A stretch of DNA of 64,000 bases from Patescibacteria group bacterium (GTDB taxonomy: Bacteria; Patescibacteriota; JABMPQ01; JAQVVF01): positions 321,511-385,510 of the forward strand of contig JBAZSC010000001.1 of NCBI GenBank assembly GCA_041662665.1, read 5' to 3'. Shown piece after piece: positions 21,910 to 62,323 of this stretch. The notes under the pieces were generated by a model. It was given only the letters and a program-made list of their open reading frames with translations, made no database searches and was not told the DNA's origin. A program made the translations under genes and the position numbers. How positions within the stretch are numbered: position 1 is the first letter of the stretch; the number at the start of each line of letters is the position of its first letter.

Positions 21910-23292
<1,383 letters not shown>

Positions 23293-23293
23293 C

Positions 23294-23403
23294 TAAATCC
23301 CAAATTACAAATTCCAAACAAATTACAAATAACAAGCCACAAAATAATTTTTGTAATTTGTATTTTGGATATTGTAATTTGTTTGGGATTTGAAATTTGT
23401 AAT
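23294..23403. repeat. Word-built inverted repeat (aaattac/aaatccc/aaattcc words) after atpD
   Basis: ctaaatcccaaattacaaattccaaacaaattacaaat... faces ...tgtaatttgtttgggatttgaaatttgtaatt. Pairing is imperfect and operates at the level of words. Confidence 0.7.
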
Positions 23404-33196: not shown

Positions 33197-34843
33197 TTAT
33201 TTTATTTTTTTAATCATGTAGCTATCCTGAAATTTATATCCTTGTTTTCGATAATAATCTCTAACACCGACACCAGAAATAACTGCAATTTTGTTTAATC
33301 TAAATTCTTTTTTAACAATTTTTTCTGCTTCTTTCATCAAACTTTTACCTAAGCCCATGTGTTGTGAAGCCTTCAAATTTTTCTTATCAATTTCAACCAT
33401 TTGTCCTAAACTTTTCAATTCTCTAATTATAGCACAATTATTTAATACATTAATATAATGTTTTTCATGAGTAAAATATTGTGATGGAATTCTTAATCTA
33501 AGATAAGCTAATATTTTATTATTTTTTTCATCCTCATAGCTTAGAAAAATTTCTTTTCCATTTGAGGCATTATAATCCATCCTGGTTAATTTTATATCTC
33601 CCATTTCCCATTTCCCATTTCTCACTTCACGACATCGAATGCATTTGCACAACAAATTTTGTTCAATCATTTTTGCATGAACAACTTGTCTAATATTTGA
33701 CATTTTATTTCCAGCCACAATATCTGGAGCCGGAATATCTCGACCAAGTCTCATTATTCTAACATATTTTGGAATTTTTTGTTTAATTTTAATTAGCAAT
33801 TCAACAATTTCTTTATCGCTGTATGGTTTATATTTTCCTGCTTTCCAAACTTTATATAATTTAGAATTCTTCGTCAAAACACAAGGATAAATTTTTAACA
33901 TATCAGGCTGAAAAGAAGAATCAGAAAATAATTCTTCAAACATTTGCAAATCTTTATTATTATTACTTTTTGGTAAATTCGGCATCATGTGATAATTGAT
34001 TTTAAAACCTGCATCTTTCAGCAATTGTGTTGCCTGTATAGTTTTATCAATCAAATGTCCGCGATTATTGAACTTTAAAACATTATCATAAATACTTTGC
34101 ACGCCTAGTTCAATTCTGGTAGCTCCAAGTTTTCGCATTCTGATTACTTCTTTCTCATCAATCAAATCAGGTCTTGTTTCAAGAGTCATTCCAATAATTC
34201 TATGTTTCGCTTTTTCATTTCGCTTTTGTTCGTCAGTTAAAGTCGTTTGTTTATTTGTTTTATTGTTTTTTTGTTTATTAAAATGATTAGCCGTTTTAAA
34301 ACATTTTAACACAAAATTATTTTGATAATTTTTTGGTAGGGCAGTCCACGATCCTCCCATAATAATCAGCTCAATTTTATCAGTTTTATGTCCGCAAATA
34401 TTTAATGCTTCTAATCTTGTTTCAATCTGTTTTTTTGGCGAGTAATTACAAAGAATTGCTCTCATTACAGCTGGCTCATCATTCAAGTAGCTTTTTGGCA
34501 TTTTTGGTTGACTCGGACAATACAAACATTTTCCAGGACATTTGTATGGCTTTGTAAAAATTGCAATTGAAGCAATGCCAGATAATGTTCTGGTCTTTTG
34601 TTTTTTTAATAATTCCTCAAAATTTTTGTCTTGCTTAATCTTTTTCTCTTTGATTAAATTTCTATAAACTGATAAAATATTAATATTAGTTAGTAAATTG
34701 CATTTATATTTTTTCGAAATCTTTCTTTTTTCCAATTCAAATTTGGATCTTAAAAAAGATTTTTGCTTCAAAGTTTTAATTATAAGTTCTTCAACTGGTT
34801 TCATAAGACTAATTATATTATAATAATAAACCATTTTTGTCAA
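33197..34843 (-). CDS. Elp3-like radical SAM / GNAT acetyltransferase (tRNA uridine-34 carboxymethyl synthase family)
   Basis: A CPGKCLYCP radical-SAM cluster motif, about 540 aa in length, and a C-terminal GNAT-like end (VISGVGVRDYYRKQGY). The true start may be the internal MKPVEEL. Confidence 0.75.
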   Translation of the reverse strand: MTKMVYYYNIISLMKPVEELIIKTLKQKSFLRSKFELEKRKISKKYKCNLLTNINILSVYRNLIKEKKIKQDKNFEELLKKQKTRTLSGIASIAIFTKPYKCPGKCLYCPSQPKMPKSYLNDEPAVMRAILCNYSPKKQIETRLEALNICGHKTDKIELIIMGGSWTALPKNYQNNFVLKCFKTANHFNKQKNNKTNKQTTLTDEQKRNEKAKHRIIGMTLETRPDLIDEKEVIRMRKLGATRIELGVQSIYDNVLKFNNRGHLIDKTIQATQLLKDAGFKINYHMMPNLPKSNNNKDLQMFEELFSDSSFQPDMLKIYPCVLTKNSKLYKVWKAGKYKPYSDKEIVELLIKIKQKIPKYVRIMRLGRDIPAPDIVAGNKMSNIRQVVHAKMIEQNLLCKCIRCREVRNGKWEMGDIKLTRMDYNASNGKEIFLSYEDEKNNKILAYLRLRIPSQYFTHEKHYINVLNNCAIIRELKSLGQMVEIDKKNLKASQHMGLGKSLMKEAEKIVKKEFRLNKIAVISGVGVRDYYRKQGYKFQDSYMIKKIK

Positions 34844-37302: not shown

Positions 37303-38715
37303 ATGGAAAATCAAAATCAAACATCCTATGATGCTTGGTTGAAAGAGTGTGATTTTCTAGCAAAAGTCAGAAAAGAAAACCCAAAAAAGATAGAACGACA
37401 AAACCCAATTATCGAGGATCAAAAATTACTTCAAGATTACGGAATTGAAATAATTTCTGATCTACCTTTGGGTTTTTTGCGTTTTTCGCCAGCTGATTTC
37501 ATTGTTGAAGAAATTACTCAAGATGGCAGAATTACAACTATTGATCCAGAAAATGATCCAAGCTTAGCAGATCAAGAAGGCGAGACAGTTTATGCTGATG
37601 TAGTTAAAATTGGCATTCCAACATTAGAAGCAATTGATCGTATTGCCAAAAAATTGAATGTAGGCTTAGGACAAATTGGCTATTCTGGCATGAAAGATGC
37701 CATTGCTATTACTTCTCAAAAATTTAGTTTTAGAAAAATATCCAGAGATAAAATAAAAGAATTAAAACTTCCAAATATTTATTTAAAAAATATAATTGTT
37801 AGCAAAGGCGCTTTGCAACCAGGAAATTTGATTGGTAATAGATTTAATATTTTTATCCGAACAAAAGGTTTGTACGATCCAAATTTGTTATTAGAAAAAT
37901 TAAACCATATTAAAGAAGTTGGCTTTTATAATTTTTTTGGCAGTCAACGATTTGGCGGAGCTAGGGGAATTGGCCACAAGCTTGGTATAATTTTACTTCG
38001 TGGTGATTATGAGTTAGCAGTTAAAGCATTTTTAATTGCTCAAGGCAAGAATGAAATTCCATTAATCCAAGAATTAAGAAACAAAGCCAAAGCAATTTAT
38101 GGCAATTGGAATGATATGATCAAAATTTATGAACAAATGCCATATACTTTTTCTGGCGAAATAAGAGTTTTAAAAGCTTTGACGCATGAACCAAGTGATT
38201 ATATTAATGCCTTATTAGCAATCAAAGAACAAGTCAAACTTTGGGCTTATGCTTACGGTAGCTATTTATTTAATAAAAAAATCTCACAATTAGTTCGCAA
38301 CAAAATTAATCTGCCAGCTAAATTGCCATTATTTTTGAGCAATGAAAGATCAGACAAAGATTTGTATGAAGACTTTTTAGAAAGCGATAAAACAAAAAAT
38401 TTCCGAGAATCAGCTCGTCCATTTCCATTTATCCAGTTGCGTCATTATGAAGTTCCAACATTATTATCTCCAAAAATTAATTCTTTTACTTGTACAGAAG
38501 ATGGAGTTGCCATTAATTTTGAATTACACAAAGGTGCCTATGCCACAACATTTTTATCTCATATCTTTACTTTGACAATGGGCTTGCCATTGCCAAGTTG
38601 GGTCTCACAAAAAGAAATTGATACCTTAAAAATATTAGAGCTAGGCACAATAGAAAATATCAAAAAAGTTTTTGAAGAATACTGGTCAAATGTTTTAACA
38701 AATTCTGGTAAATAA
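37303..38715 (+). CDS. truD: tRNA pseudouridine synthase D
   Basis: GYSGMKDAIAITSQKFS (GxKD motif) and FGSQRFG are typical of TruD. Confidence 0.8.
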   Translation: MENQNQTSYDAWLKECDFLAKVRKENPKKIERQNPIIEDQKLLQDYGIEIISDLPLGFLRFSPADFIVEEITQDGRITTIDPENDPSLADQEGETVYADVVKIGIPTLEAIDRIAKKLNVGLGQIGYSGMKDAIAITSQKFSFRKISRDKIKELKLPNIYLKNIIVSKGALQPGNLIGNRFNIFIRTKGLYDPNLLLEKLNHIKEVGFYNFFGSQRFGGARGIGHKLGIILLRGDYELAVKAFLIAQGKNEIPLIQELRNKAKAIYGNWNDMIKIYEQMPYTFSGEIRVLKALTHEPSDYINALLAIKEQVKLWAYAYGSYLFNKKISQLVRNKINLPAKLPLFLSNERSDKDLYEDFLESDKTKNFRESARPFPFIQLRHYEVPTLLSPKINSFTCTEDGVAINFELHKGAYATTFLSHIFTLTMGLPLPSWVSQKEIDTLKILELGTIENIKKVFEEYWSNVLTNSGK

Positions 38716-38806
38716 TTCTGCGTTTTCTGCGTTCGATTCTGCGTATTTCTGCGGAATCGTTTTTAACGCAGACTAACGCAGAATCTAACGCAGAACGTGC
38801 AGAAAA
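38716..38806. repeat. Word-built inverted repeat (ttctgcg / cgcagaa words)
   Basis: ttctgcgttttctgcgttcgattctgcgtatttctgcgg faces aacgcagactaacgcagaatctaacgcagaacgtgcagaa. Confidence 0.75.
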
Positions 38807-38829
38807 TAATCTACACGTTTTTTTTGTGC

Positions 38830-38860
38830 AAAAAAAAGACCGACTCGGACGAGTCAGTCT
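38830..38860 (-). terminator. Intrinsic terminator of high-GC cassette C
   Basis: The minus strand reads agactgactcgtccgagtcggtct followed by T8. Confidence 0.7.
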
Positions 38861-38905
38861 AGGTAGGGTGCGAAAGGAACGGGTGTTGTGAGTGTGTGGG
38901 TAGGT

Positions 38906-39493
38906 CTATCGGGTGGGGGGGCTCAGCGTGTAGGTGTAGCGACCGGGGGCGAAGCTGATGTGCAGCTCTTCCTGGGTCACCATGCCGTCGCGGGGGACTG
39001 GCACGTTCACGGTGTCGAGCCTGTACAGCTCTTCACCCTTCTCGTTGACGTTGGCCCAGACGTTGCAGTAGGGTGTGGTCTGGTTGAAGAGGTTGACGAC
39101 ACGATCGGGCAGCTTGAGATCTTTTCCTGTCTGAGTGAGCACCAGCTGCAGGAACCTCTTCCTGCCACGCTTATCCTCACGCCAGAACCAGAAGGCATCC
39201 GTCACCTTGTAGCCAGCCATGCCGAGCTCGCTCAGGAGTGCGCTCATGTCGACCATCTGCCGATTGGCAGCGATGTTCGTGCCGGTGTCATCCATGCCGT
39301 CTCTCTTGACACCGAACTCGATTCCGAGATCCTTTGCCTCCTTGCGGTGCTTCGCAGCCACCGCCTTTGCATCGTACTCCTTCTGAGGGAGCAGAGCCTC
39401 GATCCAGCCGCCGATTCCGGCGACCTTCACGAGGATGATGAGGGGCATGAGCCCCAGACCTTCGAACTGATCAACCAGGACCGTGCGGCTCAT
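38906..39493 (-). CDS. High-GC (about 60%) SD-led ORF of unknown function, 195 aa (module C)
   Basis: Start reassigned to MSRTVLVDQFEG, preceded by acaGGAGGtttccg. Codons mostly end in G or C. There is one hydrophobic segment (LGLMPLIILVKVAGIGGWIEALL). I recognise no family. The plus-strand ORF 38888..39583 is its antisense shadow. Confidence 0.65.
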   Translation of the reverse strand: MSRTVLVDQFEGLGLMPLIILVKVAGIGGWIEALLPQKEYDAKAVAAKHRKEAKDLGIEFGVKRDGMDDTGTNIAANRQMVDMSALLSELGMAGYKVTDAFWFWREDKRGRKRFLQLVLTQTGKDLKLPDRVVNLFNQTTPYCNVWANVNEKGEELYRLDTVNVPVPRDGMVTQEELHISFAPGRYTYTLSPPTR

Positions 39494-39542
39494 CGGAAAC
39501 CTCCTGTCAGTGGTGGCACTCACCCCGATTCCAGGGCTTTTC

Positions 39543-39571
39543 ATCATATCACAGCACCCTATTTTTGTCAA
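39543..39571 (-). promoter_or_regulatory. Sigma70-type promoter of module C
   Basis: On the minus strand, TTGACA (39571-39566), a 17-nt spacer, then TATGAT (39548-39543). Confidence 0.6.
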
Positions 39572-39657
39572 TGGCATTTTTGAAGTGGGAAGTGGGATCT
39601 TGGGATATGAGAAATGGGAACCTTAAATAAGCCAAAAAAAGATATTTGTGCGATTAG

Positions 39658-39730: not shown

Positions 39731-40708
39731 TTATGCTTTGAGTGCAACCTTCGCTAGTGCAATCGCTCCTTCTCTTGATTTCGCTACTACAATATGCCCA
39801 TCTTTATGGCAGTTATCAGCATCAGCAACTCCAGTCAATTTGACCAAAGTTGAGCCGCGCTGTCCATGCCATGCTTTTGGCAAGTTTTTACGATAGCGTT
39901 TGCCAGTCCCATATCCAGCATTCACAACATGTACCATCCAGCCATTGTTAACGCGATGAACAACAAATTTGATCAGCGGTAATTCTTTAACAACTGATGA
40001 CCAAGGCATCGGATCATTCAATACAACAATTCTTGGATCATCAGATTCAGGTACCGCTTTCAACACCAGCTCTTCAGCTCTGATGACGCCTGCAGCTCTT
40101 GCAATTGTCCTTTTTAGATAGACCTTGGCAAATTCCAAAGCTTCAAAAAAAGCAACATCTGGATCTCGATCATTTTCATCCCAAGCTGGATTATAATTAT
40201 CAATCACATTTGAAATAGTGTGTGCAGAGATATCTTCCACTTTTCCTTGAAAAATCTTGTAGCCATTGTCCTGTGCATCAATTGGAATCACCAGCCACTT
40301 TTCTACAAGCTTAGCTACTTTTTCATTTCCATCACAAATTGCTACTCCAAACTTTTTCCAGACCAATCCAAAAGAAGCATAGGGCAGATGTGCGGTCACT
40401 TTCTTGCCAAACAATTTCCACATCAGCAAGTTGATAATATGCTTGAAAATCCAAGCAAACCGCAAGACTTTGAAAAAGCCTTCACGTATTCCAGCTCCGC
40501 CAAACATGTGATGATCAAAGTCGCCAGTATTTGGATCATTTTCGCCGCCGACATCAACTCGAAAATCAGCCTTTTCGTAAACTTCCTGATCGCGAGTCCG
40601 AAAAATTTGAATGATAAAGAGCAATGCCAATGCTGCACACGCAAACACATCATCAGCATGAAACCTTCCATTATGCGTTGCAACAACCTTATGTTCCTTC
40701 TCAATCAT
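39731..40708 (-). CDS. MYG1/UPF0160 family metal-dependent hydrolase; SD-led cassette gene
   Basis: The N-terminus VATHNGRFHADDVFACAAL is the MYG1 signature. The SD is GAGGAGGaagaggaa. The terminator agaggtttttacctct plus T-run follows. Confidence 0.8.
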   Translation of the reverse strand: MIEKEHKVVATHNGRFHADDVFACAALALLFIIQIFRTRDQEVYEKADFRVDVGGENDPNTGDFDHHMFGGAGIREGFFKVLRFAWIFKHIINLLMWKLFGKKVTAHLPYASFGLVWKKFGVAICDGNEKVAKLVEKWLVIPIDAQDNGYKIFQGKVEDISAHTISNVIDNYNPAWDENDRDPDVAFFEALEFAKVYLKRTIARAAGVIRAEELVLKAVPESDDPRIVVLNDPMPWSSVVKELPLIKFVVHRVNNGWMVHVVNAGYGTGKRYRKNLPKAWHGQRGSTLVKLTGVADADNCHKDGHIVVAKSREGAIALAKVALKA

Positions 40709-40847: not shown

Positions 40848-42353
40848 TTATTTCGACTGATCAACTCGGTTAAAGGACATTCCAAATGCGACTCTGTAGG
40901 CCGCGTACGCAGGTTCAAGGTACTCTCTTTCATCTGAACAAATATGTTGTTCACAACAAGTCAAGAAATAGTCAGCCTGTTTTTTGTCATGTCTCTTCGG
41001 CATTGTGAAAAAGTAGACAAAAGGCAGATACATTTCTGGCCTGCGTTTGTCATCATCAACCAGCATTTCCAAAGCTTGCAAAGTCCTCAGCATTTCAGAT
41101 AGCTTTGATCTGCCAATTCTTGATTTCTCAAGATAGATGAACAGAAGATTAACAGAAATTGCAGCAATGATTTCAGTATCATCAAAGGCCTTGATTGCTT
41201 CTTTGCATGTTGTTGCAAGAACATCAAGCCTTGTTGCTTTCATTTCTGGATCCGGAAGATGAGCGATTGTATGCCGATGTTCTTTCAGATGTCCAAGAAA
41301 TGCGCGTGTTGCCTGAATTGACTTTTCATCATCAACTCCAGCTTCGCGGCATTTTACCAAGTACTCGATTGCTTTCGCAAAAGTGCTTGGCTTTCTGGCA
41401 TAGAAAAAGACAAAAGCTGCATAGATTCTTGGTGGAACTCTGACACTCAAACCTTCAGCTTTTGCAAGCAGTTCATGCATTTCTTTTGATTTATCATCTC
41501 TGAATTTCTTTGACCATTCCAGATAGACATACAACAATCCTTCTATGGCTTGAATCAAGAAAGTAGGCGAATCTTGTAGATAGCTGATCGCTTCCAAAAA
41601 GAGCATCTCAGCTTCAGCAAGCTTTAGTCTTTGTTCATCAAGATCTTCAATCTCTTTGACAGCTTTGCGTTGATGTTCAGCATAAGCAGAACAAGCAGTT
41701 CCAACAAAGCTCAAGGCCAGAGATCTATTTTCTTTGAACTGAACAAAGAAAATCAATGCATCAGCAAACTTGTCCTTGGCGATCATCACTTCAATGTAAT
41801 CTTTCACCAGATAACCAACTTGTTTATTTTCACCATAATACTTCAGTAAGTGGGCAAGTTGAACTTGCGCTTTTTCAAAATCATCTTGAGCAAGATAGAT
41901 TCTTGCCATCATGCAATTTGCCTGACAAGAGAAGGGATTGATTCTCAAGGCGTCTTCAGCGTATTGCCTTGCATCATCAAATCTCTTTTGCTCGAGGCAA
42001 GTCTTAGCCTGAATCAGATAGAAATCAGTATCTTCATCAGAATCGCTAAACAATGCAGTGAGTTCGCTGATTTTTGCATTTTCGCGATCAGGAAAGAATC
42101 TCATCAAATAGCTTAGCTTTGCCATCGCCTGATCTTTTTGACCAGATTTATGCAAAGCATGAATCTGAAGATTCATTGCCAAACCATTGCAAGGATCTTC
42201 TCCAAGAGCTTTTTCGCAATGAACTAATACACCAGCAAAATCATTCTGTCCTAAACAAGTCGCCGCTTTTGCACAAGAATCAGGTTCAAGTGTTGATGAA
42301 TCACCAAGCAATTCAAGTAAATCACCAAGATTAAGATCTTCTGGCTCAGCCAT
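40848..42353 (-). CDS. TPR-repeat protein; SD-led cassette gene
   Basis: 501 aa with repeated A..Y...AL..(D/N)P helical-pair motifs (FDDARQYAEDALRINP, FEKAQVQLAHLLKYY). The SD is GAGGAGGaagaga. Confidence 0.7.
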   Translation of the reverse strand: MAEPEDLNLGDLLELLGDSSTLEPDSCAKAATCLGQNDFAGVLVHCEKALGEDPCNGLAMNLQIHALHKSGQKDQAMAKLSYLMRFFPDRENAKISELTALFSDSDEDTDFYLIQAKTCLEQKRFDDARQYAEDALRINPFSCQANCMMARIYLAQDDFEKAQVQLAHLLKYYGENKQVGYLVKDYIEVMIAKDKFADALIFFVQFKENRSLALSFVGTACSAYAEHQRKAVKEIEDLDEQRLKLAEAEMLFLEAISYLQDSPTFLIQAIEGLLYVYLEWSKKFRDDKSKEMHELLAKAEGLSVRVPPRIYAAFVFFYARKPSTFAKAIEYLVKCREAGVDDEKSIQATRAFLGHLKEHRHTIAHLPDPEMKATRLDVLATTCKEAIKAFDDTEIIAAISVNLLFIYLEKSRIGRSKLSEMLRTLQALEMLVDDDKRRPEMYLPFVYFFTMPKRHDKKQADYFLTCCEQHICSDEREYLEPAYAAYRVAFGMSFNRVDQSK

Positions 42354-45789: not shown

Positions 45790-45972
45790 GCCGTTGTAGC
45801 TCAGTCGGCAGACCTGCCCGCCATCGCCCGAGCCATTGTAGCTCAGTTGGTAGAGCAATTCCATGGTAAGGAGTAGGTCACCGGTTCAATTCCGGTCAAT
45901 GGCTCAGGCGAGGGCAGGCGGGGTAATTCCATGGTAAGGAGTAGGTCGGCGGTTCGATTCCGCCCAACGGCT
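45790..45972 (+). tRNA. tRNA-Thr(GGU) interrupted between positions 23 and 24 (D-arm) by a 110-nt insertion
   Basis: The 5' part GCCGTTGTAGCTCAGTCGGCAGA (45790-45812) plus the 3' part GTAATTCCATGGTAAGGAGTAGGTCGGCGGTTCGATTCCGCCCAACGGCT (45923-45972) reconstitute a canonical 73-nt cloverleaf. It has acceptor GCCGTTG/CAACGGC, a D-stem with a G10-U25 wobble, and anticodon loop ATGGTAA. Confidence 0.6.
45832..45904 (+). tRNA. tRNA-Thr(GGU), complete, nested in the insertion of the outer tRNA
   Basis: GCCATTG TA GCTC AGTTGGTA GAGC A ATTCC ATGGTAA GGAGT AGGTC ACCGG TTCAATT CCGGT CAATGGC T: a full cloverleaf with anticodon GGT. Confidence 0.85.
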
Positions 45973-46226: not shown

Positions 46227-46336
46227 TTCGAAAATTACAAATGTCAAATTCCAAATTCCAAACAAATTACAAATCACAATATACAAAATCTTTGTAATTT
46301 GTTTGGAATTTGTTATTTGTAATTTTATTTAATCTC

Positions 46337-47089: not shown

Positions 47090-47098
47090 GAACATGCT

Positions 47099-47963
47099 AG
47101 AAACTCGGTTTTCTATTAATCAAAAAAATAAACTTATTGTAAGTAAAAACAAGGTATAAAAAATAATCATTTAATTAAGATAAAACCGAGTTTCGCGTGA
47201 ATTCAAAAATAGAAATGCGCAAAACAAATTTTACAAATGAATCATTTTATCATATCTACAATCGCGGTACTGAAAAACGCGATATTTTTTTGCAAAATTA
47301 TGATTATTTTCAATTTATTAAATTATTAAGAAAATATAAAAATAATTTAGTTGAAATAATCTGCTATTGCTTAATGCCGAATCATTTTCATTTATTGCTA
47401 AAACAATTAAATAATAATGGAATCAGCAAGTTCATGCATTTATTAACAATAAGTTATGCAAAATATTTTAACAAAAAATATGATCATAGCGGAGTTTTAT
47501 TTCAGGGAAAATTTAAAGATGTCCAGATTTTGAGCTATATTCAATTGCTAAATATTTCAAAATACATCCATATAAATCCAGCTAAAGATCAGAATATTTT
47601 ATTAAAACAAAAAATAATTACATTAGAAAATTATCCTTGGTCTTCTTATAAAGATTATATAAATATCAGAAACGGAACATTATGTAATAAAACCGAAATA
47701 ATAAATTGTGTAGAAGGTAATTTTGTAAAAGAGTATAAAGAATTAATAAAGGCACATTTGATGAATTATAATGAGAGAAATTTGGATAAATTAATACTTG
47801 AATGAGTGAAATAGAAACTCGGTTTTCTATTAATCAAAAAAATAAACTTAATGTAAGTAAGAACAAGGTATGAAAAATAATCATTTAATTAAGATAAAAC
47901 CGAGTTTCATCATGTTGTAAATAATTGACACACGAAACTCGGTTTCTTCGGAAACCGAGTTTC
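47099..47963 (+). mobile_element. IS200/IS605-like (RAYT-type) Y1 transposase element with hairpin-forming flanks
   Basis: The transposase ORF is flanked by two 96-bp direct repeats (47099-47194 and 47813-47908). Each repeat is bounded by gaaactcggtttt ... aaaaccgagtttc. A third minimal hairpin gaaactcggtttcttcggaaaccgagtttc lies at 47934-47963. Confidence 0.75.
47197..47805 (+). CDS. IS200-like / REP-associated tyrosine transposase (HUH Y1 family)
   Basis: FYHIYNRGTEKRDIF, the HUH motif in CYCLMPNHFHLLLKQ, and YIHINPAK. The track start is GTG. An ATG 18 nt downstream is an alternative start. Confidence 0.8.
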   Translation: MNSKIEMRKTNFTNESFYHIYNRGTEKRDIFLQNYDYFQFIKLLRKYKNNLVEIICYCLMPNHFHLLLKQLNNNGISKFMHLLTISYAKYFNKKYDHSGVLFQGKFKDVQILSYIQLLNISKYIHINPAKDQNILLKQKIITLENYPWSSYKDYINIRNGTLCNKTEIINCVEGNFVKEYKELIKAHLMNYNERNLDKLILE

Positions 47964-48751: not shown

Positions 48752-48974
48752 CAGAATGAAATTTCCAATTACCAATTTCCAATTCACAATAAATTTTCAA
48801 TAAGCAATTTTCAATGACGACAGTGACGATTTGAAAATTAGTAATTGGTCATTTATTGTAAATTGATAATTGGAAATTAGAGATATGTAATCAGTAACTA
48901 GTAATCAAAAAATTGATTCCTAAATACTGATTGCGTGCGAGAGGGGACCAAGAGTCCTCGAGGAGGAAAGGACA

Positions 48975-49196
48975 ATGGCGAATTGCATCATCTGCCACCA
49001 GCGCGTTGCGAGCGGCGGTGACCGGCATGCCAAGGGGCAGTGTCCGGCGAAGAAGAAGGAGCGCGAGCAGAAGGAGAACGAGGTGCAGGCCGGCGATCTC
49101 GCGACCCCGGGTCGCGGAGACGTCGTGCCGCTGGCCGGCAAGACCAGCACCCAGCTCTCCAACAAGGGCAAGTCCCGGGGGTCCAAGTCGGGCTGA
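48975..49196 (+). CDS. High-GC SD-led small basic protein, 73 aa (module A)
   Basis: The SD cGAGGAGGaaaggaca precedes the ATG. Of the overlapping ORFs here, this is the frame I picked because its codons mostly end in G or C. The protein is MANCIICHQRV...GQCPAKKKEREQKE... I recognise no family. Confidence 0.55.
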   Translation: MANCIICHQRVASGGDRHAKGQCPAKKKEREQKENEVQAGDLATPGRGDVVPLAGKTSTQLSNKGKSRGSKSG

Positions 49197-49392
49197 GCCT
49201 GACACGACCCACAAGACGAGCCCAAGTACTAGGTTCTAGTGTCGTTCCGTTTCATCCCCAAGTTCCCCAGATTTTTCTTCAGTTTTCCGCCAGTACCTTC
49301 CATGCCAGACTCTTGTCTGGCCCCACCTGAAATAATAATGATTACATTGTTATTTGAGGCGGTACATTAAAAAATGATCAATTTACAATTTT

Positions 49393-49547
49393 TCACCCTT
49401 CGGGTGACCACCCGCAGGGTGGCAATAAATTACCAATTACCAATTTTCAAAGCGACGATGGTCGTAATTGGAAATTGTTCATTGAAAATTTATTGGAAAT
49501 TGCAAAATTGGTAATTGCCACCCTACGGGTGGTCACCCGAAGGGTGA
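49393..49547. repeat. About 155-nt composite inverted repeat with GC-rich self-complementary ends
   Basis: tcacccttcgggtgaccacccgcagggtggcaa ... ttgccaccctacgggtggtcacccgaagggtga. The AT-rich ccaatt/aattgg words sit in the middle. Confidence 0.8.
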
Positions 49548-49639
49548 GAAATTAGGGTTTGCGGTAAAGCAAAGATCTTAAAAAAGATTTTCGCCTTGCT
49601 GCAAAGTGCAGCCTATAGCAGAGAAGGAAAAGTAAACGA

Positions 49640-49816
49640 TGAACGATCAGATGGACGCGGCGGACCGGCGGATCATGGACGAAACGACTGTTCGGCTCGA
49701 AGGCCGGCAGGTCAAGTCCAGCCAGGGAGCTGGTTCCAGGTCGGCAGAAGTGCCAATCTGGAAGATCCGCGCGAGCCGTCGTGCTCTCCCCGCCATGGCA
49801 GTCTACGGCGACTAGA
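49640..49816 (+). CDS. Possible high-GC small ORF, 58 aa (module B)
   Basis: Below the ORF-track length cut-off. ATG at 49640 with only a weak SD (agaaGGAaaagtaaacg). The protein is MNDQMDAADRRIMDETTVRLEGRQVKSS..., and the frame has mostly G/C-ending codons. Confidence 0.35.
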
Positions 49817-50061
49817 CCTACCCCCAACTCTTCAGTTTTCCGCTCGTACCCTCCTGTGGTCACTTTTCGTGGCCACCTCAGCTTAAGCAACGATGTGATC
49901 GTTGAGTAAGTAGAGAACGTTACAAAATTATCAATTTCCAATTTACAATTCTCAATAAATTTTCAATGAACGATTTCCAATGGCGATACTCGGTCTGAAA
50001 ATTGAAAATTGGTAATTTATTGGAAATTGTAAAATTGATAATTGGAAATTAAATCTAGCTT

Positions 50062-50106
50062 TCAGCAGTTTGCCTCAAATTATTTTGAGACACACTATTG
50101 ATAGCT
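50062..50106 (+). promoter_or_regulatory. Conserved ~45-nt leader element, copy 1
   Basis: tcagcagtttgcctcaaattattttgagacacactattgatagc. It is about 80% identical to copy 2 and contains the hairpin ctcaaa/tttgag. Confidence 0.45.
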
Positions 50107-50814: not shown

Positions 50815-50943
50815 ATGACTGCATTTTAACCTCTGTATGTTTCCAGTTTTTATCAAGTTTTTAATGAATAATTTGCAATAGTTTGAAAATTAATTCATTG
50901 AAAATTTAATAAAAATTAATAATTAGAAATTAAAAATTCGCTG

Positions 50944-50987
50944 TCAGCCTTTTGCCTCAAATCATTTGGAGACAAAAGATTGATAGC
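50944..50987 (+). promoter_or_regulatory. Conserved ~45-nt leader element, copy 2
   Basis: tcagccttttgcctcaaatcatttggagacaaaagattgatagc. It lies upstream of high-GC module D. Confidence 0.45.
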
Positions 50988-51247
50988 CTGTCCCGTACTA
51001 TGTTTCTGGTGAATATAAAAAAACATTGATTACTTTAGGAATTTAATCAATGCAACAAACAATATTTATTAGATACTTAGTATGGGATTAATGCTAGAAC
51101 ACTGACAACTTGGAAGGTAAAAATAATAGTCAAAAGTGTTAACTGTTAAGTGTTAATGGTTAACTGTTTGAAGTTGGCACATCGCGGCCAGGCAAGGCCG
51201 CGTTCGCGCGCGAGTAGATTCCGCTTGTGTCAGAGGAGGAGAGCGAC

Positions 51248-53515
51248 ATGTCGACCAACTGCGAGCCGAAGAGCGTCAGCACCGTCAACACCGTCACCGA
51301 GGAGAAGGAGGTGAAGCCCGCCCGGGTGCGCAAGCCCCGGGTGAAGGTCGAGAAGGAAGAGCAGGAGCAGTTCAACGAGGATGGCACGAAGAAGGATGTG
51401 AAGGACGAGGCCCCGCCCAAGAAGCGGAGCCACCACAAGAAGGTCGAGAAGTCCGTCGCCGTCGAGACCGAGACCGCCGAGCCCGCCCCGCCCGCCGAGT
51501 CCACCCCCAAGGTGGCGTCGGTGGCGGTGGTCGAGCAGCCGGTCCAGGTCGCCCCGCCCGCCGCGCCCCAGCCCGAGCCCCCCAAGAAGGGCGAGGTCGA
51601 GGACGTCAACGAGGACGAGGACAAGGACGGCGAGAGCGAGGGTGAGGACGAGGAGCAGGAGACCAGCGAGGAGGCGCTGGAGGACGCCCAGATCAACGAC
51701 CTGGAGTTCCAGAAGAAGATGAGCGAGCTCCCCCGGCACGAGCAGATCCGGCGGCAGAAGGCCCGCAACCGGGTCATCACGAGCAACCGGCGCAGCCGCA
51801 AGACGGCGGCGCAGGACAAGAACCGCGCGGAGCACAACGAGATGCGCGAGGCCGGGCGGCCGGAGGTGAAGATCACCATCCCGGACCCCCTGATCTGCAG
51901 CGCCCACGCCGGTGAAGTCCTGAAGCTCGAGGACGCCTACTCGCTGAACAGCAGCGTGGTCTACGAGCTGACCCAGGTGAGCCAGGAAGGCAAGACCGAG
52001 GCGCAGACCAAGATCCTGAAGTTCGTGGTGAGCAAGCTCGCTCCGCTGTTCCGGTTCAACTGCGAGACCATCCCGGCCTACTGCAAGACGGTGGTGGACG
52101 TGCTGGCGAAGAACATCGCGGCCGTCCAGCCCCTCATCGCGCACGAGAAGAAGGCGCGGTGGGAGAGCCGGATCGTCATGCCCTACGCGGCCGCGCTCCG
52201 GCACTTCGCCGAGAGCAAGGCCGCGGTCGAGGGCAAGCAGCAGAACGTCAAGGACCGGCAGAACAAGGAGGCGTGGGCCTGGTTCGACGAGAACATCGGC
52301 AAGTTTCACGCCGAGCTGGTCGGGCTGCGCAGCGTCGAGGAGATCGTCGGCAAGATCGACATCCTGAACGGCCTGAACGACAAGTGTCTCGACACCTTGC
52401 GCCACCACTTCCTCGAGACCCTGCCCGTGATGCGCTACAGCGAGCCCGGCAAGATGCTGGGTCAGCTGCTGCGCGAGCGGGGCAAGAAGTACGAGCAGGT
52501 GCAGATCGAGGAGCAGCGGGCCCGCAAGGCCGAGGCCGACGAGAAGCGCAGGAAGGAGGAAGAGAAGGCTCTGGCCGGGCTGGGCGAGCTCGAAGGGCTG
52601 TTCGGTGGCGAGGAGAAGCAGGGCGAGGAGCAGGACGAGGAGCCCAGCGAGCGTGACGAGAACGAGAAGCGGATCGGCAAGTGGCTGGAGAAGCTTGTCG
52701 GCGGGAAGATGCACAGCGCGGCCGGGCTGATGACGCCCAGCGCCCTGCGCGAGATCTTCGCCGCGGATCCGGGCGCCGAGGTCTACTCGGCCTGCCCGTT
52801 CAGCCAGCAGGCGCCGGGGACCCAGTACTCCACCTACGTGAACCGGAAGGGCGACAACGAGCCCCTCTTCGCGACGGTGACGGTCCCGACCCTCGTGGTC
52901 GAGACCGACGACGAGGGTCAACCGATCTGCGACGGCAAGGGGCGGCCCAAGCCGTGGATCAACCCCCGTACGAGCAAGACGCAGTACGAGGGGCAGATCG
53001 CGGTGCTGACGAAGCACGAGGCCCGCTGGGCCGCGTCGATCCGCATCCGCCAGATGGCCGAGGAGCAGGTGAACAACGGCCGGTACGACTCGCTGGAGGA
53101 GGCCATCAACGGCATCCATCAGGAAGTCAACCAGGCCAAGACCAACCTCTGGGCGGCCAAGAAGGAGTTCAACGAGGCCAAGGTCTCCGGCGACCAGAGC
53201 CGCATCGACGCGGCCGAGGAGCGCCTGAACCAGGCCAAGGAGGTCATGAACCATCTGAGCGACGACCGTCGTCCGTGGTACCAGGGGATGCTCGAGGGAA
53301 GCCTCGGTGTCCTCAAGTACTACGATCTCAAGAACACGGTCGAGATGCTCAACAAGCCCCGTGAAGAGCGGCCCGCCAAGCGCAACACGCGCGGCGGCGG
53401 GACCCACGGCAACTACGAGCAGGAGCAGTCCCAGGGCGCGAGCGCGGAAGAGCAGGAGGCCTTCTTCCGCAGCCAGAACAACCAGAGCTTCGCCAACAAG
53501 GCCCGCCAGGTCTGA
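51248..53515 (+). CDS. High-GC, GC3-saturated SD-led ORF of unknown function, 755 aa (module D)
   Basis: ATG at 51248 preceded by caGAGGAGGAGagcgac (the track start at 51227 is GTG). By my manual read, about 30-odd of ~755 codons end in A or T. The protein is K/E/Q/N-rich with an acidic/basic low-complexity N-terminal ~200 aa. I recognise no domain. Confidence 0.75.
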   Translation: MSTNCEPKSVSTVNTVTEEKEVKPARVRKPRVKVEKEEQEQFNEDGTKKDVKDEAPPKKRSHHKKVEKSVAVETETAEPAPPAESTPKVASVAVVEQPVQVAPPAAPQPEPPKKGEVEDVNEDEDKDGESEGEDEEQETSEEALEDAQINDLEFQKKMSELPRHEQIRRQKARNRVITSNRRSRKTAAQDKNRAEHNEMREAGRPEVKITIPDPLICSAHAGEVLKLEDAYSLNSSVVYELTQVSQEGKTEAQTKILKFVVSKLAPLFRFNCETIPAYCKTVVDVLAKNIAAVQPLIAHEKKARWESRIVMPYAAALRHFAESKAAVEGKQQNVKDRQNKEAWAWFDENIGKFHAELVGLRSVEEIVGKIDILNGLNDKCLDTLRHHFLETLPVMRYSEPGKMLGQLLRERGKKYEQVQIEEQRARKAEADEKRRKEEEKALAGLGELEGLFGGEEKQGEEQDEEPSERDENEKRIGKWLEKLVGGKMHSAAGLMTPSALREIFAADPGAEVYSACPFSQQAPGTQYSTYVNRKGDNEPLFATVTVPTLVVETDDEGQPICDGKGRPKPWINPRTSKTQYEGQIAVLTKHEARWAASIRIRQMAEEQVNNGRYDSLEEAINGIHQEVNQAKTNLWAAKKEFNEAKVSGDQSRIDAAEERLNQAKEVMNHLSDDRRPWYQGMLEGSLGVLKYYDLKNTVEMLNKPREERPAKRNTRGGGTHGNYEQEQSQGASAEEQEAFFRSQNNQSFANKARQV

Positions 53516-53621
53516 ACCTTCCAACAACCCGCCCCCGGGACAAGTCCAAGCTTTAAGCTTGTAACCTTGCTCCCTGGCGCGCGGCACACTACCATTCCAG
53601 TTCTTTCATTCCCGTTCCTTC

Positions 53622-53650
53622 AGAAGACCCTTACCGGTCTTCTTTTTTTT
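53622..53650 (+). terminator. Intrinsic terminator of module D
   Basis: agaagaccc tta ccggtcttct followed by T8. Confidence 0.7.
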
Positions 53651-53701
53651 CACTAAGTTATCAGTTAACAGTTGAAAGTTATAAGTTACGTCAATTTACT
53701 C

Positions 53702-53773: not shown

Positions 53774-53929
53774 ATGCCACAAGATAATCTCATTAAATTA
53801 GAATGCACTGTTTGCAAGAGCATTAATTATTATTCTCGCAAGAACAAAAAAGTTCTTAAAAATAAAATTGAGATCAAAAAATTCTGCAAGAAATGCAAGA
53901 AACATACTCTACACAAAGAGACTAAATAA
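53774..53929 (+). CDS. rpmG: 50S ribosomal protein L33
   Basis: Below the ORF-track cut-off. It translates to MPQDNLIKLECTVCKSINYYSRKNKKVLKNKIEIKKFCKKCKKHTLHKETK, a typical Zn-ribbon L33. Confidence 0.9.
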   Translation: MPQDNLIKLECTVCKSINYYSRKNKKVLKNKIEIKKFCKKCKKHTLHKETK

Positions 53930-54043
53930 CAAATTCCAAATTCCAAACAAATCCCAAATTACAAAAAACAAACCAATAAAACAATTTTGTAGTTTGTGAT
54001 TTGTAATTTGTTTGTGTTTTTGGGATTTGGGATTTTAACACAA

Positions 54044-54618: not shown

Positions 54619-54987
54619 ATGATTAAGGGAATTTTTATTGAAAATACGCCTTTCATTAAAATTATTATTGGCTGGGAACAATCAATACAAACGCCTTTTG
54701 CAATACTTGATACAGGATTTACCGGTGATTTACAAGTTACTCCAAAAATTGCCAAAGAATTAGGATTAGAAGTAATTGAAGTTATCAAGATGCAAATGGC
54801 AAACGGACAAATTGTTGAAATTCCAGCTGCTCATGCCGTAGTTGTAATGGAAGGCAAAAAGGAATTAGTTCAAGTTTTAATTTCTGAAAATCTGCCTTTA
54901 ATTGGCATCAGCTTATTATCGAAATTTAAGTACAAAGCTATTCTAAATTGCAAACATAAAACAGTTGAATTAGAAAAAGCTAAATAA
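54619..54987 (+). CDS. Retropepsin-like (clan AA) aspartic protease
   Basis: ILDTGFTGDL contains the D-T-G active-site motif, and the protein is about 120 aa. Confidence 0.65.
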   Translation: MIKGIFIENTPFIKIIIGWEQSIQTPFAILDTGFTGDLQVTPKIAKELGLEVIEVIKMQMANGQIVEIPAAHAVVVMEGKKELVQVLISENLPLIGISLLSKFKYKAILNCKHKTVELEKAK

Positions 54988-59106: not shown

Positions 59107-60573
59107 ATGAATCAAAATCCTACAGAAAATTTAAAAAAATATTTAGATTTAGCGAGAAAATCAAAAACTTTTGAATTTCTTAATATCTTAATATCAGAAT
59201 ATCCGAAGGCTAGTATCTATTTAGTCGGTGGTTTTGTGCGTGACCAAATTTTAGGTTTAGAATCCAAAGATTTAGATTTTGTTGTTACAAAAATTAAGGC
59301 AGATGATCTGAAAAAATTTTTAGGAAAATATGGTTCTGTAGAATTAGTCGGTGCTTCGTTTGGTGTTTTTAAATTTGTGCCAAAAGAATCAGAATTTATG
59401 AATCAGAAAATGGAAGCTTTTGATATTGCTCTTCCTCGAACAGAAAAATCTTTAGGAACTGGCGCATATCGAGATTTTGATGTCCAATCAGATCCAGAAT
59501 TGCCAATAGATGTTGATTTATCAAGACGCGATTTGACAATCAATGCCATTGCTTATGATATCAAAAATGATTCTATAGTTGATCCATATTTTGGTCAAAA
59601 AGATTTAGCTAATAAAATAATCAAAGCAGTTGGCGAGCCAAAACAAAGATTCCAAGAAGATTATTCCAGAATTTTAAGGGCAATAAGATTTGCTCTAAAA
59701 TTTAATTTTCAAATTGAAGATAATACTTGGCAAGCAATTAAAGATGACGCTCCAAAAATTTTAGATGCAGTTCCATTTGAAACAATTTCTAAAGAATTAT
59801 TGAAATCTTTAGACGCAAATCCAGTTAGATTTTTAGATCTTTATGATCAAAGCAAATTATTAAATATAATTTTGCCAGAAGTAGAAGAATGCAAAGGTGT
59901 TATTCAGCCAAAAGAATTTCATGAAGAAGGCGATGTTTATGAACATACAAAATTAGCGTTAACTTTTATTCCCAAAAATTCTACTGTCAGATTTAAACTA
60001 GCAACTTTATTGCATGACATTGGCAAACCAAGCACAACTAAAACTCCAGAAAAAGATGGTGTTGAAAGAGTGCGCTCTGACGAACATGCCGAAGTCGGTG
60101 CAGAAATTACTGGCTATATATGCAATCGCTTAAAATTGCCAAATAATTTATCAAACGAAATAGTTTGGCTGGTAAAATACCACATGTTTTTTGTTTCAGG
60201 AAAAGTTGAAGATATGCGTCCAAACACAATCAAAAAATATTTTATTGATAATCCAAAATTAGGTGATGAACTTTTGGATTTATATTATGTTGATACAAAG
60301 GCATCATTTGGTCCAACTCAAGAAAAAAATTTAGCAAGAATTACTGAAGTTCGCGATTATATTAATAATATGCGTGAACAATTTAGAAAATCAGAAATAA
60401 AAACTTTCCGACATGTTATCGATGGACAAGATATTATGAAAGAATTTAATTTAAAACCTGGAAAAGAAATTGGAGAATATTTGGAAAAAGCAGATAAATT
60501 TATTTTGGAATTTGTTACCAAAAATGGGGAAGAGCCTAGTAAAGAAGAAGTCCTAAAAAGTCTAAAATCCTAA
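59107..60573 (+). CDS. cca: CCA-adding enzyme / tRNA nucleotidyltransferase with HD domain
   Basis: YLVGGFVRDQILGLESKDLDF, RRDLTINAIAY and LLHDIGKP. Confidence 0.8.
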   Translation: MNQNPTENLKKYLDLARKSKTFEFLNILISEYPKASIYLVGGFVRDQILGLESKDLDFVVTKIKADDLKKFLGKYGSVELVGASFGVFKFVPKESEFMNQKMEAFDIALPRTEKSLGTGAYRDFDVQSDPELPIDVDLSRRDLTINAIAYDIKNDSIVDPYFGQKDLANKIIKAVGEPKQRFQEDYSRILRAIRFALKFNFQIEDNTWQAIKDDAPKILDAVPFETISKELLKSLDANPVRFLDLYDQSKLLNIILPEVEECKGVIQPKEFHEEGDVYEHTKLALTFIPKNSTVRFKLATLLHDIGKPSTTKTPEKDGVERVRSDEHAEVGAEITGYICNRLKLPNNLSNEIVWLVKYHMFFVSGKVEDMRPNTIKKYFIDNPKLGDELLDLYYVDTKASFGPTQEKNLARITEVRDYINNMREQFRKSEIKTFRHVIDGQDIMKEFNLKPGKEIGEYLEKADKFILEFVTKNGEEPSKEEVLKSLKS

Positions 60574-60702
60574 ATTCTAAATCCTAAACAAATTCAAATG
60601 ACTAAAATCAAAATGATCAAAAGTCGATTTGAAATTTAGTATTTGAATTTTTAATTTGTTTAGAGTTTAGGATTTAGTGCTTTGAGTTTTAATTAAAAAA
60701 AT

Positions 60703-62111: not shown

Positions 62112-62323
62112 ATGATTAATTTCATCTTTTTTTATTTCTTGTCTCAATCCGTCAAATTTGGTAAAATAACTATATAAAAATTCAATAAACAAATTCCAAA
62201 TCCTAAACAATTTACAAATTACAAAACACAAAATATCTTTGTAATTTGATTAAAAAAATTGTATTCCAATTTTTTTAATTGTGGTTTGTTTGGAATTTGA
62301 GATTTGTAATTTAATTTAACTTT

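Follow-up and report, generated by a model that had tools for sequence, protein, structure and literature searches.

A stationary GC-rich gene unit paired with truD in an AT-rich Patescibacteria genome

Introduction

Genes whose composition or variability sets them apart from the rest of a bacterial genome are known from several kinds of systems. Islands acquired by horizontal gene transfer (HGT) are recognised by a deviation in guanine-plus-cytosine (GC) content from the host genome and by a donor lineage, and phage morons by an autonomous promoter-gene-terminator architecture and by their location. Loci that swap alleles between conserved flanks include those for capsule, O-antigen and pilin as well as vls, the GC-rich locus for antigenic variation in the AT-rich Borrelia burgdorferi. 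Control by rare codons is exemplified by the TTA codon and the bldA tRNA of Streptomyces, and small regulatory RNAs (sRNAs) with C-rich seeds by the RsaE/RoxS type and by the alphaproteobacterial mmgR, which carries CCUCC motifs resembling an anti-Shine-Dalgarno (anti-SD) sequence. Diversity-generating retroelements (DGRs) are abundant in bacteria of the Candidate Phyla Radiation (CPR). The locus considered here, module C, is a GC-rich unit built around a single gene of 195 amino acids (aa) in a 64,000-nucleotide (nt) stretch, hereafter the window, of the genome of a Patescibacteria group bacterium (assembly GCA_041662665.1, contig JBAZSC010000001.1, positions 321,511 to 385,510). Literature searches turned up no account of CPR or Saccharibacteria genes that are kept GC-rich.

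Module C resembles HGT islands and phage morons in being a sharp compositional outlier and a self-contained unit that lies beside variable accessory genes. It differs from them in lying outside any prophage, without mobility genes or attachment (att) sites, and in occupying one conserved site, where its synonymous divergence (dS) equals that of its neighbours and its deviation in composition is kept over phylum-level divergence. With the capsule, O-antigen, pilin and vls loci it shares conserved flanks around deeply divergent alleles that predate the split of the genomes carrying them, and with vls in particular the position of a GC-rich locus in an AT-rich genome. Unlike these loci, module C consists of just one small gene, which lacks a signal peptide and has no silent cassettes or paralogues in the window; its unit of exchange is the predicted transcript, its GC content at third codon positions (GC3) is far more extreme and its position beside truD is fixed across the phylum. 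The TTA/bldA system is similar in that a subset of genes uses codons avoided by the rest of the genome. In module C, however, the whole open reading frame (ORF) and its untranslated regions (UTRs) are recoded, the direction is reversed (GC-rich codons in an AT-rich genome) and no dedicated tRNA was identified.

Like the RsaE/RoxS and mmgR sRNAs, module C has an unpaired C-rich tract with anti-SD-like words before a terminator, but membership of such a family is not established, the match to the mmgR/suhB model being at chance level. DGR targets are likewise fast-evolving genes of CPR genomes, and genes of the Avd-like family PF05635 lie a few kilobases (kb) away in relatives. Module C nevertheless lacks a pair of template and variable repeats, its divergence extends over the whole ORF rather than the C-terminal part, and its synonymous changes are not specific to A. 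Module C fails the tests for an HGT island, a moron, a DGR target, a curated family, a solved fold and an Rfam family, and was therefore rated as lying outside the known kinds. By analogy, it combines a moron-like architecture with a population behaviour of the capsule, pilin or vls type, and a conservative filing could place it as a form of hypervariable locus.

Composition and transcription unit

In sliding windows of 200 nt, GC content climbs from 0.31-0.35 to 0.56-0.62 over 38.8-39.6 kb of the window and then drops to 0.38-0.43. Module C itself (38,830-39,537) has a GC content of 0.57-0.60 against 0.31-0.34 for the genome, a deviation of the kind by which genomic islands are recognised. 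The background of the window is about 0.30, the exceptions being three further GC-rich blocks (48.9-49.3, 49.6-49.9 and 51.1-53.7 kb) and a tRNA cluster. The 195-aa ORF (38906-39493, minus strand), designated X in comparisons with relatives, has GC contents of 0.61, 0.38 and 0.81 at the first, second and third codon positions. The GC3 of rpsB, truD, tsf and pyrH is 0.19-0.23, and that of ordinary ORFs in the window is 0.228 ± 0.050 with a maximum of 0.37 (n=51, each of at least 100 aa); the 195-aa gene thus lies about 11 standard deviations out, far beyond chance. First codon positions (GC1) are also shifted, to 0.61-0.65 in X against 0.41-0.48 in the neighbouring genes, and the nearby MYG1 and TPR (tetratricopeptide repeat) genes show a mild elevation only (GC3 0.33-0.34).

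On the minus strand, a near-consensus sigma-70 promoter (39543..39571) consists of a -35 element TTGACA (39571-39566), a 17-nt spacer and an extended -10 element TGaTATGAT (39551-39543) that includes the TG motif. It matches 11 of 12 consensus positions, is the sole such site in the region, and hardly varies over seven lineages in spite of a protein identity of only 34-65%. A box, TTTTTGGCTTATT (39626..39638, minus strand), which precedes the -35 element by about 55 nt, is identical in the window and in the relatives L001, L003 and L022 though the flanks differ. The predicted 5' UTR (39494..39537, about 43 nt, GC 0.60) contains a 5'-terminal stem-loop (39537-39522), which follows the -10 element and is predicted in most orthologues, and the SD sequence GGAGG (39504-39500), 6 nt ahead of the ATG at 39493. 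The coding sequence with its TAG stop (38906..39493), which is supported by the family and orthologue alignments, leads into a 3' UTR (38861..38905) that is C-rich, G-poor (C 0.39, G 0.12) and predicted to be unpaired. Directly 3' of the stop codon lies ACCTACCC (38905-38898), and further inside the 3' UTR a pyrimidine box, CCCGTTCCTTTCGCACCCTACC (38883-38862). A terminator scan placed an intrinsic terminator at 38830..38860, made of a 10-bp hairpin (38860-37; -15.2 kcal/mol, z = -3.8) and a run of eight T, and the last 46 nt of module C are identical between the window and L003.

The first-pass annotation of this DNA had described a jump from about 30% to about 60% GC and an ORF with mostly G/C-ending codons, both of which the computed GC and GC3 values reproduce, so that the GC-rich observation is confirmed as real. 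It had further described an autonomous promoter-SD-ORF-terminator unit, and the promoter and terminator scans recovered this unit with all its parts: the TTGACA-N17-TATGAT promoter in AT-rich DNA, a GC-rich 5' UTR of about 45 nt, the SD GGAGG and the 195-aa ORF at the positions claimed, the tail that begins directly after the stop codon, the pyrimidine box, and the hairpin followed by T8. An autonomous unit of this form is a hallmark that module C has in common with phage morons.

The limits of the GC-rich block follow those of the predicted transcript. The 40 nt before the predicted +1 have a GC content of 0.30-0.38 and the first 40 nt after it 0.45-0.60 (six lineages), and the 3' UTR has 0.49-0.62 against 0.23-0.38 right after the T-run in the five lineages in which that run was located. 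Across alleles the 3' UTR contains 0.34-0.40 C and 0.11-0.17 G, its C-rich tract is unpaired in the minimum-energy fold of all five alleles folded, and its terminal hairpin has z-scores of -2.5 to -3.8 across the alleles folded. The unpaired tract holds the anti-SD-like words ACCTACC, CACCTTCC and CACCTCC directly upstream of the terminator hairpin and U-tail. This strand asymmetry (C over G) is a signature at the level of RNA. Module C has 0-4 runs of A/T of 5 nt or more per kb, and the neighbouring genes have 42-50. The 5' hairpin shows one compensatory change, from C-G to U-A, in L001/L018; this comes from inspection and single-sequence folds, as the arms of L018 and L019 were misaligned in a gap-free MAFFT alignment, and a real 5'-terminal stem-loop is plausible, not proven. 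Rfam covariance models found nothing above noise on module C and no match at the gathering score; the sole match, mmgR/suhB, falls on the 3' UTR and scores 17.6 bits where the gathering score is 41 (E = 0.83), no better than chance.

Maintained GC equilibrium

Comparison of the window with L001 and L003 gives a ratio of nonsynonymous to synonymous divergence (dN/dS) of 0.34-0.43 for X and 0.07-0.20 for rpsB, truD, tsf and pyrH, and a dS of 0.71-0.90 for X, like that of the same neighbours (0.58-1.19). Because dS is like that of the neighbours and dN/dS is low, X is coding, constrained, and of the same history as its neighbours in these three genomes. The ORF had been read as protein-coding from the outset, with a missing coding signal named as the result that would overturn this, and conservation and purifying selection were found in its place. 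These values show that the 195-aa gene is under purifying selection yet evolves much faster than its neighbours.

The stability of its composition was assessed at fourfold-degenerate codons whose amino acid is unchanged between orthologues. Such sites differ in 43-56% of cases in X and in 36-48% in truD, tsf and pyrH. The changes in X include 10-14 swaps between G and C per pair; those in the neighbours include 0-2 swaps between G and C and 16-31 between A and T. Similar turnover, with swaps between G and C instead of A and T, indicates that the GC equilibrium of the gene is actively maintained. The same inversion runs through codon usage, which in X is the reverse of that in housekeeping genes (Leu CTC/CTG against TTA/TTG, Lys AAG against AAA, Glu GAG against GAA, Ile ATC against ATT); X uses the codons CCC and CGG, each of which occurs 0 times in 1,692 housekeeping codons. 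The contrast in GC lasts in lineages in which synonymous sites are saturated many times over. Two opposite stationary compositions have thus stood side by side over the same time, the saturated lineages included, and this rules out the slow amelioration of foreign DNA. The comparisons show that GC-richness is here a stationary state with the limits of the predicted transcript, kept up against the AT-rich equilibrium of the genome around it.

A 231-aa ORF runs antisense to the gene at full length in the codon-aligned frame (38888-39583, plus strand). It was rejected as a real gene on account of the 1-4 stops that its frame contains in seven relatives (L001, L003, L018, L010, L015, L020 and L021). 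In the window it is open because the frame is codon-aligned and the codons TTA, CTA and TCA are absent, and the stops in the relatives mark it as a by-product.

Locus integrity and pairing with truD

The placement of the 195-aa gene between truD and tsf was repeated in independent assemblies from NCBI, JGI and SRA, and one strain is represented by five assemblies, from different samples, whose junctions are 100% identical. Searching 5.8 billion proteins brought back the JGI model of the gene itself, located on a contig of 645 kb, together with five homologues that are 45-65% identical. The contigs of these homologues, which come from independent projects, carry the gene between truD and tsf with a GC content of about 0.6 in a background of about 0.3 in each case. 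Neither the protein of the window nor the JGI model P0001 matched any existing record exactly. All relatives recovered carry the gene at the truD-tsf site, with none of the patchy presence of a recently acquired island, and neither an integrase ORF nor a flanking direct repeat turned up at 38.7-39.7 kb. No donor lineage of the kind sought for genomic islands emerged either, all 88 matches in the family described below being metagenomic hypothetical proteins. An apparent relative in Prevotellaceae (L009) was rejected as a chance match inside a 503-aa fucosidase-like ORF.

Two accessory genes of the minus strand, both assigned by Pfam, separate the 195-aa gene from tsf in the window: the MYG1 gene (UPF0160 family; 39731-40708) and the TPR gene (40848-42353). 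The TPR gene is present in L001 and L013 and the MYG1 gene in L018; L003, L004 and L022 have neither. Both lie outside the conserved unit, and of the three genes only the 195-aa gene is constant. The interval from tsf to X behaves as a small variable island, MYG1 and TPR being present or absent in close relatives.

Downstream of module C lies its convergent partner truD (tRNA pseudouridine synthase D, 470 aa; 37303..38715, plus strand; Pfam TruD, E = 4e-65). The two genes stand tail to tail in all ten lineages that have enough flanking sequence, with gaps of 55-239 bp, and the pairing persists where the identity of TruD to that of the window falls to 35-40%. The other neighbour differs by lineage, being tsf/TPR/MYG1, uvrC, DUF4012 or others. 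X is richer in GC than truD in each of the ten lineages (0.47-0.61 against 0.30-0.45), and its GC3 is 0.49-0.85 against 0.18-0.49. No copy of the 195-aa gene away from truD was seen in the 10 contexts. Metagenome scans for the family gave three loci with one query (A5) and none with another (A3). Because pairing and GC contrast are kept in distant lineages, the truD-X pair is ancestral and not an insertion, and in this Saccharibacteria clade it is the whole pair that sits between rpsB and tsf. Adjacency conserved in ten of ten lineages is what functional partners would show. Co-transcription or co-variation with truD was not seen, the genes being convergent with terminators of their own and the dN of X being 10-30 times faster than that of truD.

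These results bear on three further statements of the first-pass annotation. The 3.8-kb minus-strand block that it had drawn around the 195-aa gene, MYG1 and TPR does contain these genes, but it is composite, with one constant member. Its implication that a foreign block had been inserted into the rpsB-tsf neighbourhood is contradicted by the recurrence of the site in independent assemblies and by the pairing with truD in every lineage compared. An assembly chimera, which it had offered as a way to refute the unit, fails to do so, as the boundaries recur in independent assemblies.

Between the truD stop and the terminator of the module, an 89-nt imperfect hairpin is built from TTCTGCG/CGCAGAA units (38716..38804). 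It is probably the terminator of truD. It is not conserved, relatives carrying unrelated hairpins at this place, and an Rfam scan gave only chance-level matches resembling miRNA precursors.

Allele divergence

The relatives L003 and L022 share 95% aa identity in tsf, 91% in TruD and 98% in rpsB, with dS in the flanks of 0.27-0.61. Their X alleles are only 34% identical, with a dS of 1.12 and a dN of 0.68. This is the arrangement of an allele-exchange locus, with old alleles between conserved flanks. The window and L013 show the same pattern, with identities of 92% in tsf and 45% in the 195-aa protein. Between L003 and L022, divergence starts just past the conserved 5' hairpin; identity recovers in the terminator region and is restored after the T-run. 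A block that diverges all the way from 5' UTR to terminator, with conserved flanks on either side, is read as the exchange of whole alleles by flank recombination. The X alleles are older than the split of the L003 and L022 genomes, which fits recombination within conserved flanks. The two terminator types follow neither allele class nor host relatedness in their distribution.

The intergenic region of about 200 bp between tsf and X (about 9750-9990 in L003) is 97-100% identical between L003 and L022 despite the flank dS of 0.27-0.61, which would reflect either strong constraint or recent exchange. Within the 64-kb window there is no paralogue, silent cassette or DGR-type repeat involving module C, and explanations by DGRs, silent cassettes or paralogues were rejected for want of such repeats.

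Protein family and fold

The 195-aa protein has a mass of 22 kDa and an isoelectric point of 7.8. Among 1.84 billion representative proteins, a profile search picked out 88 members of the family, of 164-276 aa and aligned over most of their length, and a word-indexed search with a 50-sequence profile added only two more distant members. The motifs of the family are R-D, DTG, W.N, R-L-D-T-x-N and a C-terminal T-Y; the orthologue alignment, in which sequences are 62-65% identical and align at full length with in-frame indels, shows DTG, WFW, N.W.N and RLDT.N. Named members are labelled 'Patescibacteria group' or Candidatus Uhrbacteria, and all named or context-checked members are Patescibacteria, taxonomy having been placed for only a minority of the 88. 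The 90%-identity clusters looked up contain 1-2 members each.

No family member matched Pfam or PADLOC. PHROG gave three weak matches only, of one member each (best E = 2e-4), NCBIfam two chance matches, and a profile search of PDB sequences no match (best E = 0.85). An AlphaFold model from a 50-sequence alignment reached a predicted local distance difference test (pLDDT) value of 91.6 and a predicted template-modelling (pTM) score of 0.88; a model from six sequences (pLDDT 40) was not used. The confident model is an alpha/beta structure of eight strands and several helices. Foldseek found no significant neighbour of it in the PDB (best E = 0.14, template-modelling score < 0.2), and comparison with the BFVD viral models no significant match (best E = 0.045). 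The failure to assign a family, admitted when the ORF was first described, therefore holds for Pfam, PHROG, NCBIfam, PADLOC and both the profile and the fold searches of the PDB. The single hydrophobic helix proposed at that stage does not: residues of about 13-35 are modelled confidently as a beta-strand and a short helix, contain an invariant Lys and form an amphipathic strand in distant homologues. Neither a signal peptide nor a membrane segment is evident in the model. The predicted product is a soluble alpha/beta protein of about 22 kDa from an uncharacterised family.

Phage relatives were also sought. There was no tblastn match in 50,697 phage records, and viral contigs gave no match in pattern scans, a type of scan able to reach only close relatives. 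The genomic location is likewise not that of a moron, the neighbours being rpsB, truD, tsf and pyrH.

Sister modules

The three further GC-rich blocks of the window hold units of similar kind on the plus strand. They encode a 73-aa Cys/Lys-rich protein (module 48897-49334, ORF 48975-49196, GC3 0.88), a 58-aa protein (module 49577-49926, ORF 49639-49815, GC3 0.75) and a 755-aa highly charged protein (module 51125-53654, ORF 51248-53515, GC3 0.96), with an AT-rich 221-aa gene interspersed among them. L001 and L003 carry all three in synteny, likewise GC-rich. The 755-aa protein has only 26-31% aa identity between the window and L003, against 84-91% for housekeeping proteins, and its 135-nt 3' UTR is still visibly alike in the two. 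The sister-module proteins have no Pfam domain and no phage relative, and the core of the 755-aa protein has no homologue in the word-indexed database.

The 3' UTRs of the four modules are C-rich and related in sequence. Pairwise, they have eight 10-mers in common where 0.11 are expected, a number reached in none of 500 shuffles. The 3' UTR of module C has 8-10-mers in common with those of the other GC-rich modules: CCCGTTCCTT is common to module C and the 755-aa module, and ACCTACCC stands right after TAG in both module C and the 58-aa module. The two small modules, of 73 and 58 aa, have a 15-mer in common. Regular expressions made by hand for a 3'-UTR motif gave no enrichment, the patterns being too strict, and the claim of shared sequence uses the exact k-mer test only. 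As the sister modules are GC-rich and hyperdivergent and have related 3' UTRs, module C is one of a class.

A 60-nt element occurs twice, at 50046-50105 and 50928-50987 (78% identity), ahead of the AT-rich 221-aa gene in one case and of the GC-rich 755-aa gene in the other. L001 and L003 keep it ahead of the large gene, and it possibly acts as a regulatory site common to both genes.

Other features of the window

AT-rich palindromic intergenic elements with short units such as CAAATTCCAAA and GGAAATTG stand at many gene ends (for example at 23287-23391, 46231-46335, 48759-48880, 49420-49520, 49925-50044, 53916-54020, 60556-60698 and 62176-62314), and look like a genome-wide style of repeat-hairpin terminator. 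The 3' half of tRNA-Thr(GGT) (45857-45904) is repeated 68 nt downstream (45925-45972) at 88% identity, the type of repeat left by integration at a tRNA gene. An IS200-like Y1 transposase ORF (47197-47805) lies within 47098-47908, flanked by 97-nt direct repeats that are 97% identical; related Y1_Tnp genes occur at other sites in relatives, for example between truD and rpsB in L022. A 122-aa ORF (54619-54987) carries the retropepsin-like motif ILDTGFTGD and, with a 92-aa ORF ahead of it, possibly represents a small aspartic protease pair.

A 548-aa radical-SAM enzyme is encoded at 33197-34843, and its copies in relatives match Pfam Radical_SAM and Radical_SAM_C. The enzyme is presumably Elp3-like, a type uncommon in bacteria. 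The surroundings of its gene are rich in tRNA and translation genes, namely truD, rpsB, tsf and pyrH, as well as prfA, prmC and rpmE in relatives.

Discussion

The leading explanation, held with about even confidence, is that module C is a resident single-gene unit of the Candidatus Saccharibacteria chromosome whose GC content is kept by selection on its transcript. The near-consensus promoter would drive an mRNA of about 700 nt composed of the 5' stem-loop, the GGAGG SD, the 195-codon ORF, the unpaired C-rich 3' UTR of about 45 nt and the intrinsic terminator. Selection could act through RNase resistance, longevity or special translation of this mRNA: with almost no A/U runs and with protected 5' and 3' ends, it may resist AU-directed RNases or be handled differently in translation. 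Selection on the transcript is favoured because the boundary of the GC-rich block is that of the transcript, UTRs included, because the 3' UTR is strand-asymmetric and unpaired, and because both ends look protected. The protein may take part in a rapidly co-evolving interaction, for example in a conflict with host or phage; its hypervariability suggests that this is antagonistic, and the fixed linkage to truD that it is perhaps RNA-related.

Several considerations weigh against this explanation. The transcription start site, the stability of the mRNA and the abundance of the protein are all predictions, and the role of the protein is not readable from sequence or fold. The folding z-scores of the 5' hairpin are not significant by themselves, and its covariation is a single event. 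The folding energy of the whole mRNA is unexceptional for its composition (z = -1.19, 20 shuffles). A specific secondary structure is ruled out on this ground as the cause of the GC content; as the mRNA folds no better than shuffles of the same composition, it is the composition that is kept and not a particular structure. The convergence with truD might have no functional meaning; a passive cause such as a shared terminator would suffice. The highly expressed neighbours rpsB and tsf are without such bias. By our own calculation, a GC3 of 0.81-0.96 raised from an equilibrium of about 0.2 needs a scaled per-site force of about 3-4.6, which to our knowledge is at or above the strongest reported codon selection and seems demanding for a symbiont of small population. 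The need for such strong selection at each site favours a biased molecular process.

The main rival is a process of this kind, GC-biased gene conversion, in which frequent exchange of alleles, for instance through natural transformation with diversifying selection, and heteroduplex repair biased toward G/C would raise GC content with no selection on RNA. This rival has a modest chance of being correct. It would account for old, divergent alleles between conserved flanks, for the coincidence of the limits of the divergent and the GC-rich blocks, for the finding that all four GC-rich modules are the hyperdivergent ones and for the shift at first codon positions, and it dispenses with very strong selection at each site. 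However, a strand-symmetric process cannot produce the C-over-G, unpaired 3' UTR; the promoter and upstream flank, where pairing must happen, stay AT-rich; and alleles that are 35-60% identical in DNA cannot form a heteroduplex across the cassette. We also know of no bacterial biased conversion that approaches a GC3 of 0.8-0.96 in a genome of 31% GC. Rather unlikely is the gating of translation by rare codons, whereby G/C-ending codons, hardly used elsewhere in the genome, would tie translation to a few minor tRNAs or modifications as a condition-dependent switch. The exact inversion of housekeeping codon usage agrees with it, as do the setting amid tRNA and translation genes (truD, the Elp3-like radical-SAM gene, tsf, prfA and prmC) and the recurrence of the trait in four modules, but gating needs neither GC-rich UTRs nor the near-total replacement seen at a GC3 of 0.96, a few rare codons being enough, and the view of the tRNAs is limited to the four in the window.

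Alleles might instead be imported through the conserved flanks from an unseen GC-rich reservoir such as a Patescibacteria plasmid or phage or host DNA, each one taking the place of the resident allele, and the GC content would then be that of the reservoir rather than of the chromosome. The L022 allele is far older than the split of L003 and L022, and terminator types are independent of allele class and host relatedness, both in keeping with import. Yet no copy off the truD locus appeared in the ten contexts, in the phage collection or in the viral-contig scans (which reach close relatives only), dS within one allele class equals that of the flanks and points to residence in the chromosome, and we know of no Patescibacteria replicon with a GC3 of 0.8-0.96; import is accordingly judged improbable, more so than codon gating. 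Recent acquisition of a moron-like, unameliorated cassette from a high-GC donor is very improbable. Its appeal lies in the self-contained promoter-ORF-terminator architecture, in the variable accessory genes TPR and MYG1 that adjoin and in a composition and codon usage that resemble high-GC Actinobacteria, the known hosts of Saccharibacteria. It conflicts with orthologues at the same site whose dS equals that of the neighbours, with linkage to truD and GC enrichment in lineages at 35-40% TruD identity, with the spurious nature of the sole non-Patescibacteria match (Prevotellaceae, to a fucosidase), and with the absence of relatives in phages or viral contigs and of an integrase or att repeat. 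Finally, the abrupt boundaries and the full-length antisense ORF could be taken to indicate an assembly chimera, a structured RNA or an antisense 231-aa gene. The chance of any of these is negligible: five or more independent assemblies have identical junctions and many more contain syntenic homologues, Rfam gives no match above noise, the fold z-score of the mRNA is not significant, and the antisense frame is broken by stops in seven relatives.

A more speculative reading, unlikely and ranking below codon gating and above import from a reservoir, is that the four GC-rich modules form a host-matched compartment of effector cassettes working inside the host, or that they reflect an undescribed mechanism of GC-biased diversification bounded by the transcript. 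In the first form, the composition and codon usage of the modules would match the actinobacterial hosts and not the symbiont, and the mRNA or DNA of the modules would be meant to act inside the host cell, where host-like codons, an extended -10 element and the avoidance of AT-directed silencing and RNases would matter. Such cassettes would be a bacterial analogue of the T-DNA genes of Agrobacterium, which are tuned to their recipient.

Significance

Compositional outliers are routinely taken as recent transfer or mis-assembly and are discarded by binning tools. Here a GC3 of 0.8-0.96 amid an ordinary GC3 of about 0.23 is neither; it is a stationary GC state that one family keeps throughout Patescibacteria, with genes of the opposite equilibrium only a few hundred bases away, and that goes with the predicted transcript and with extreme diversity of alleles. 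Contamination filters based on composition would wrongly remove such genes from Patescibacteria metagenome-assembled genomes. The locus also adds a confidently modelled fold without an analogue in the PDB or BFVD, and a phylum-wide pairing of X with truD. If selection on the transcript is the true explanation, synonymous and UTR sites in an ultra-small symbiont would be under unusually strong constraint at the level of RNA; if a biased process is, a new locus-specific mechanism of mutation or conversion would be at work. Either way, in organisms about whose host-interaction machinery little is known, module C and its sisters mark out a small group of genes that evolve fast and probably act in interactions.

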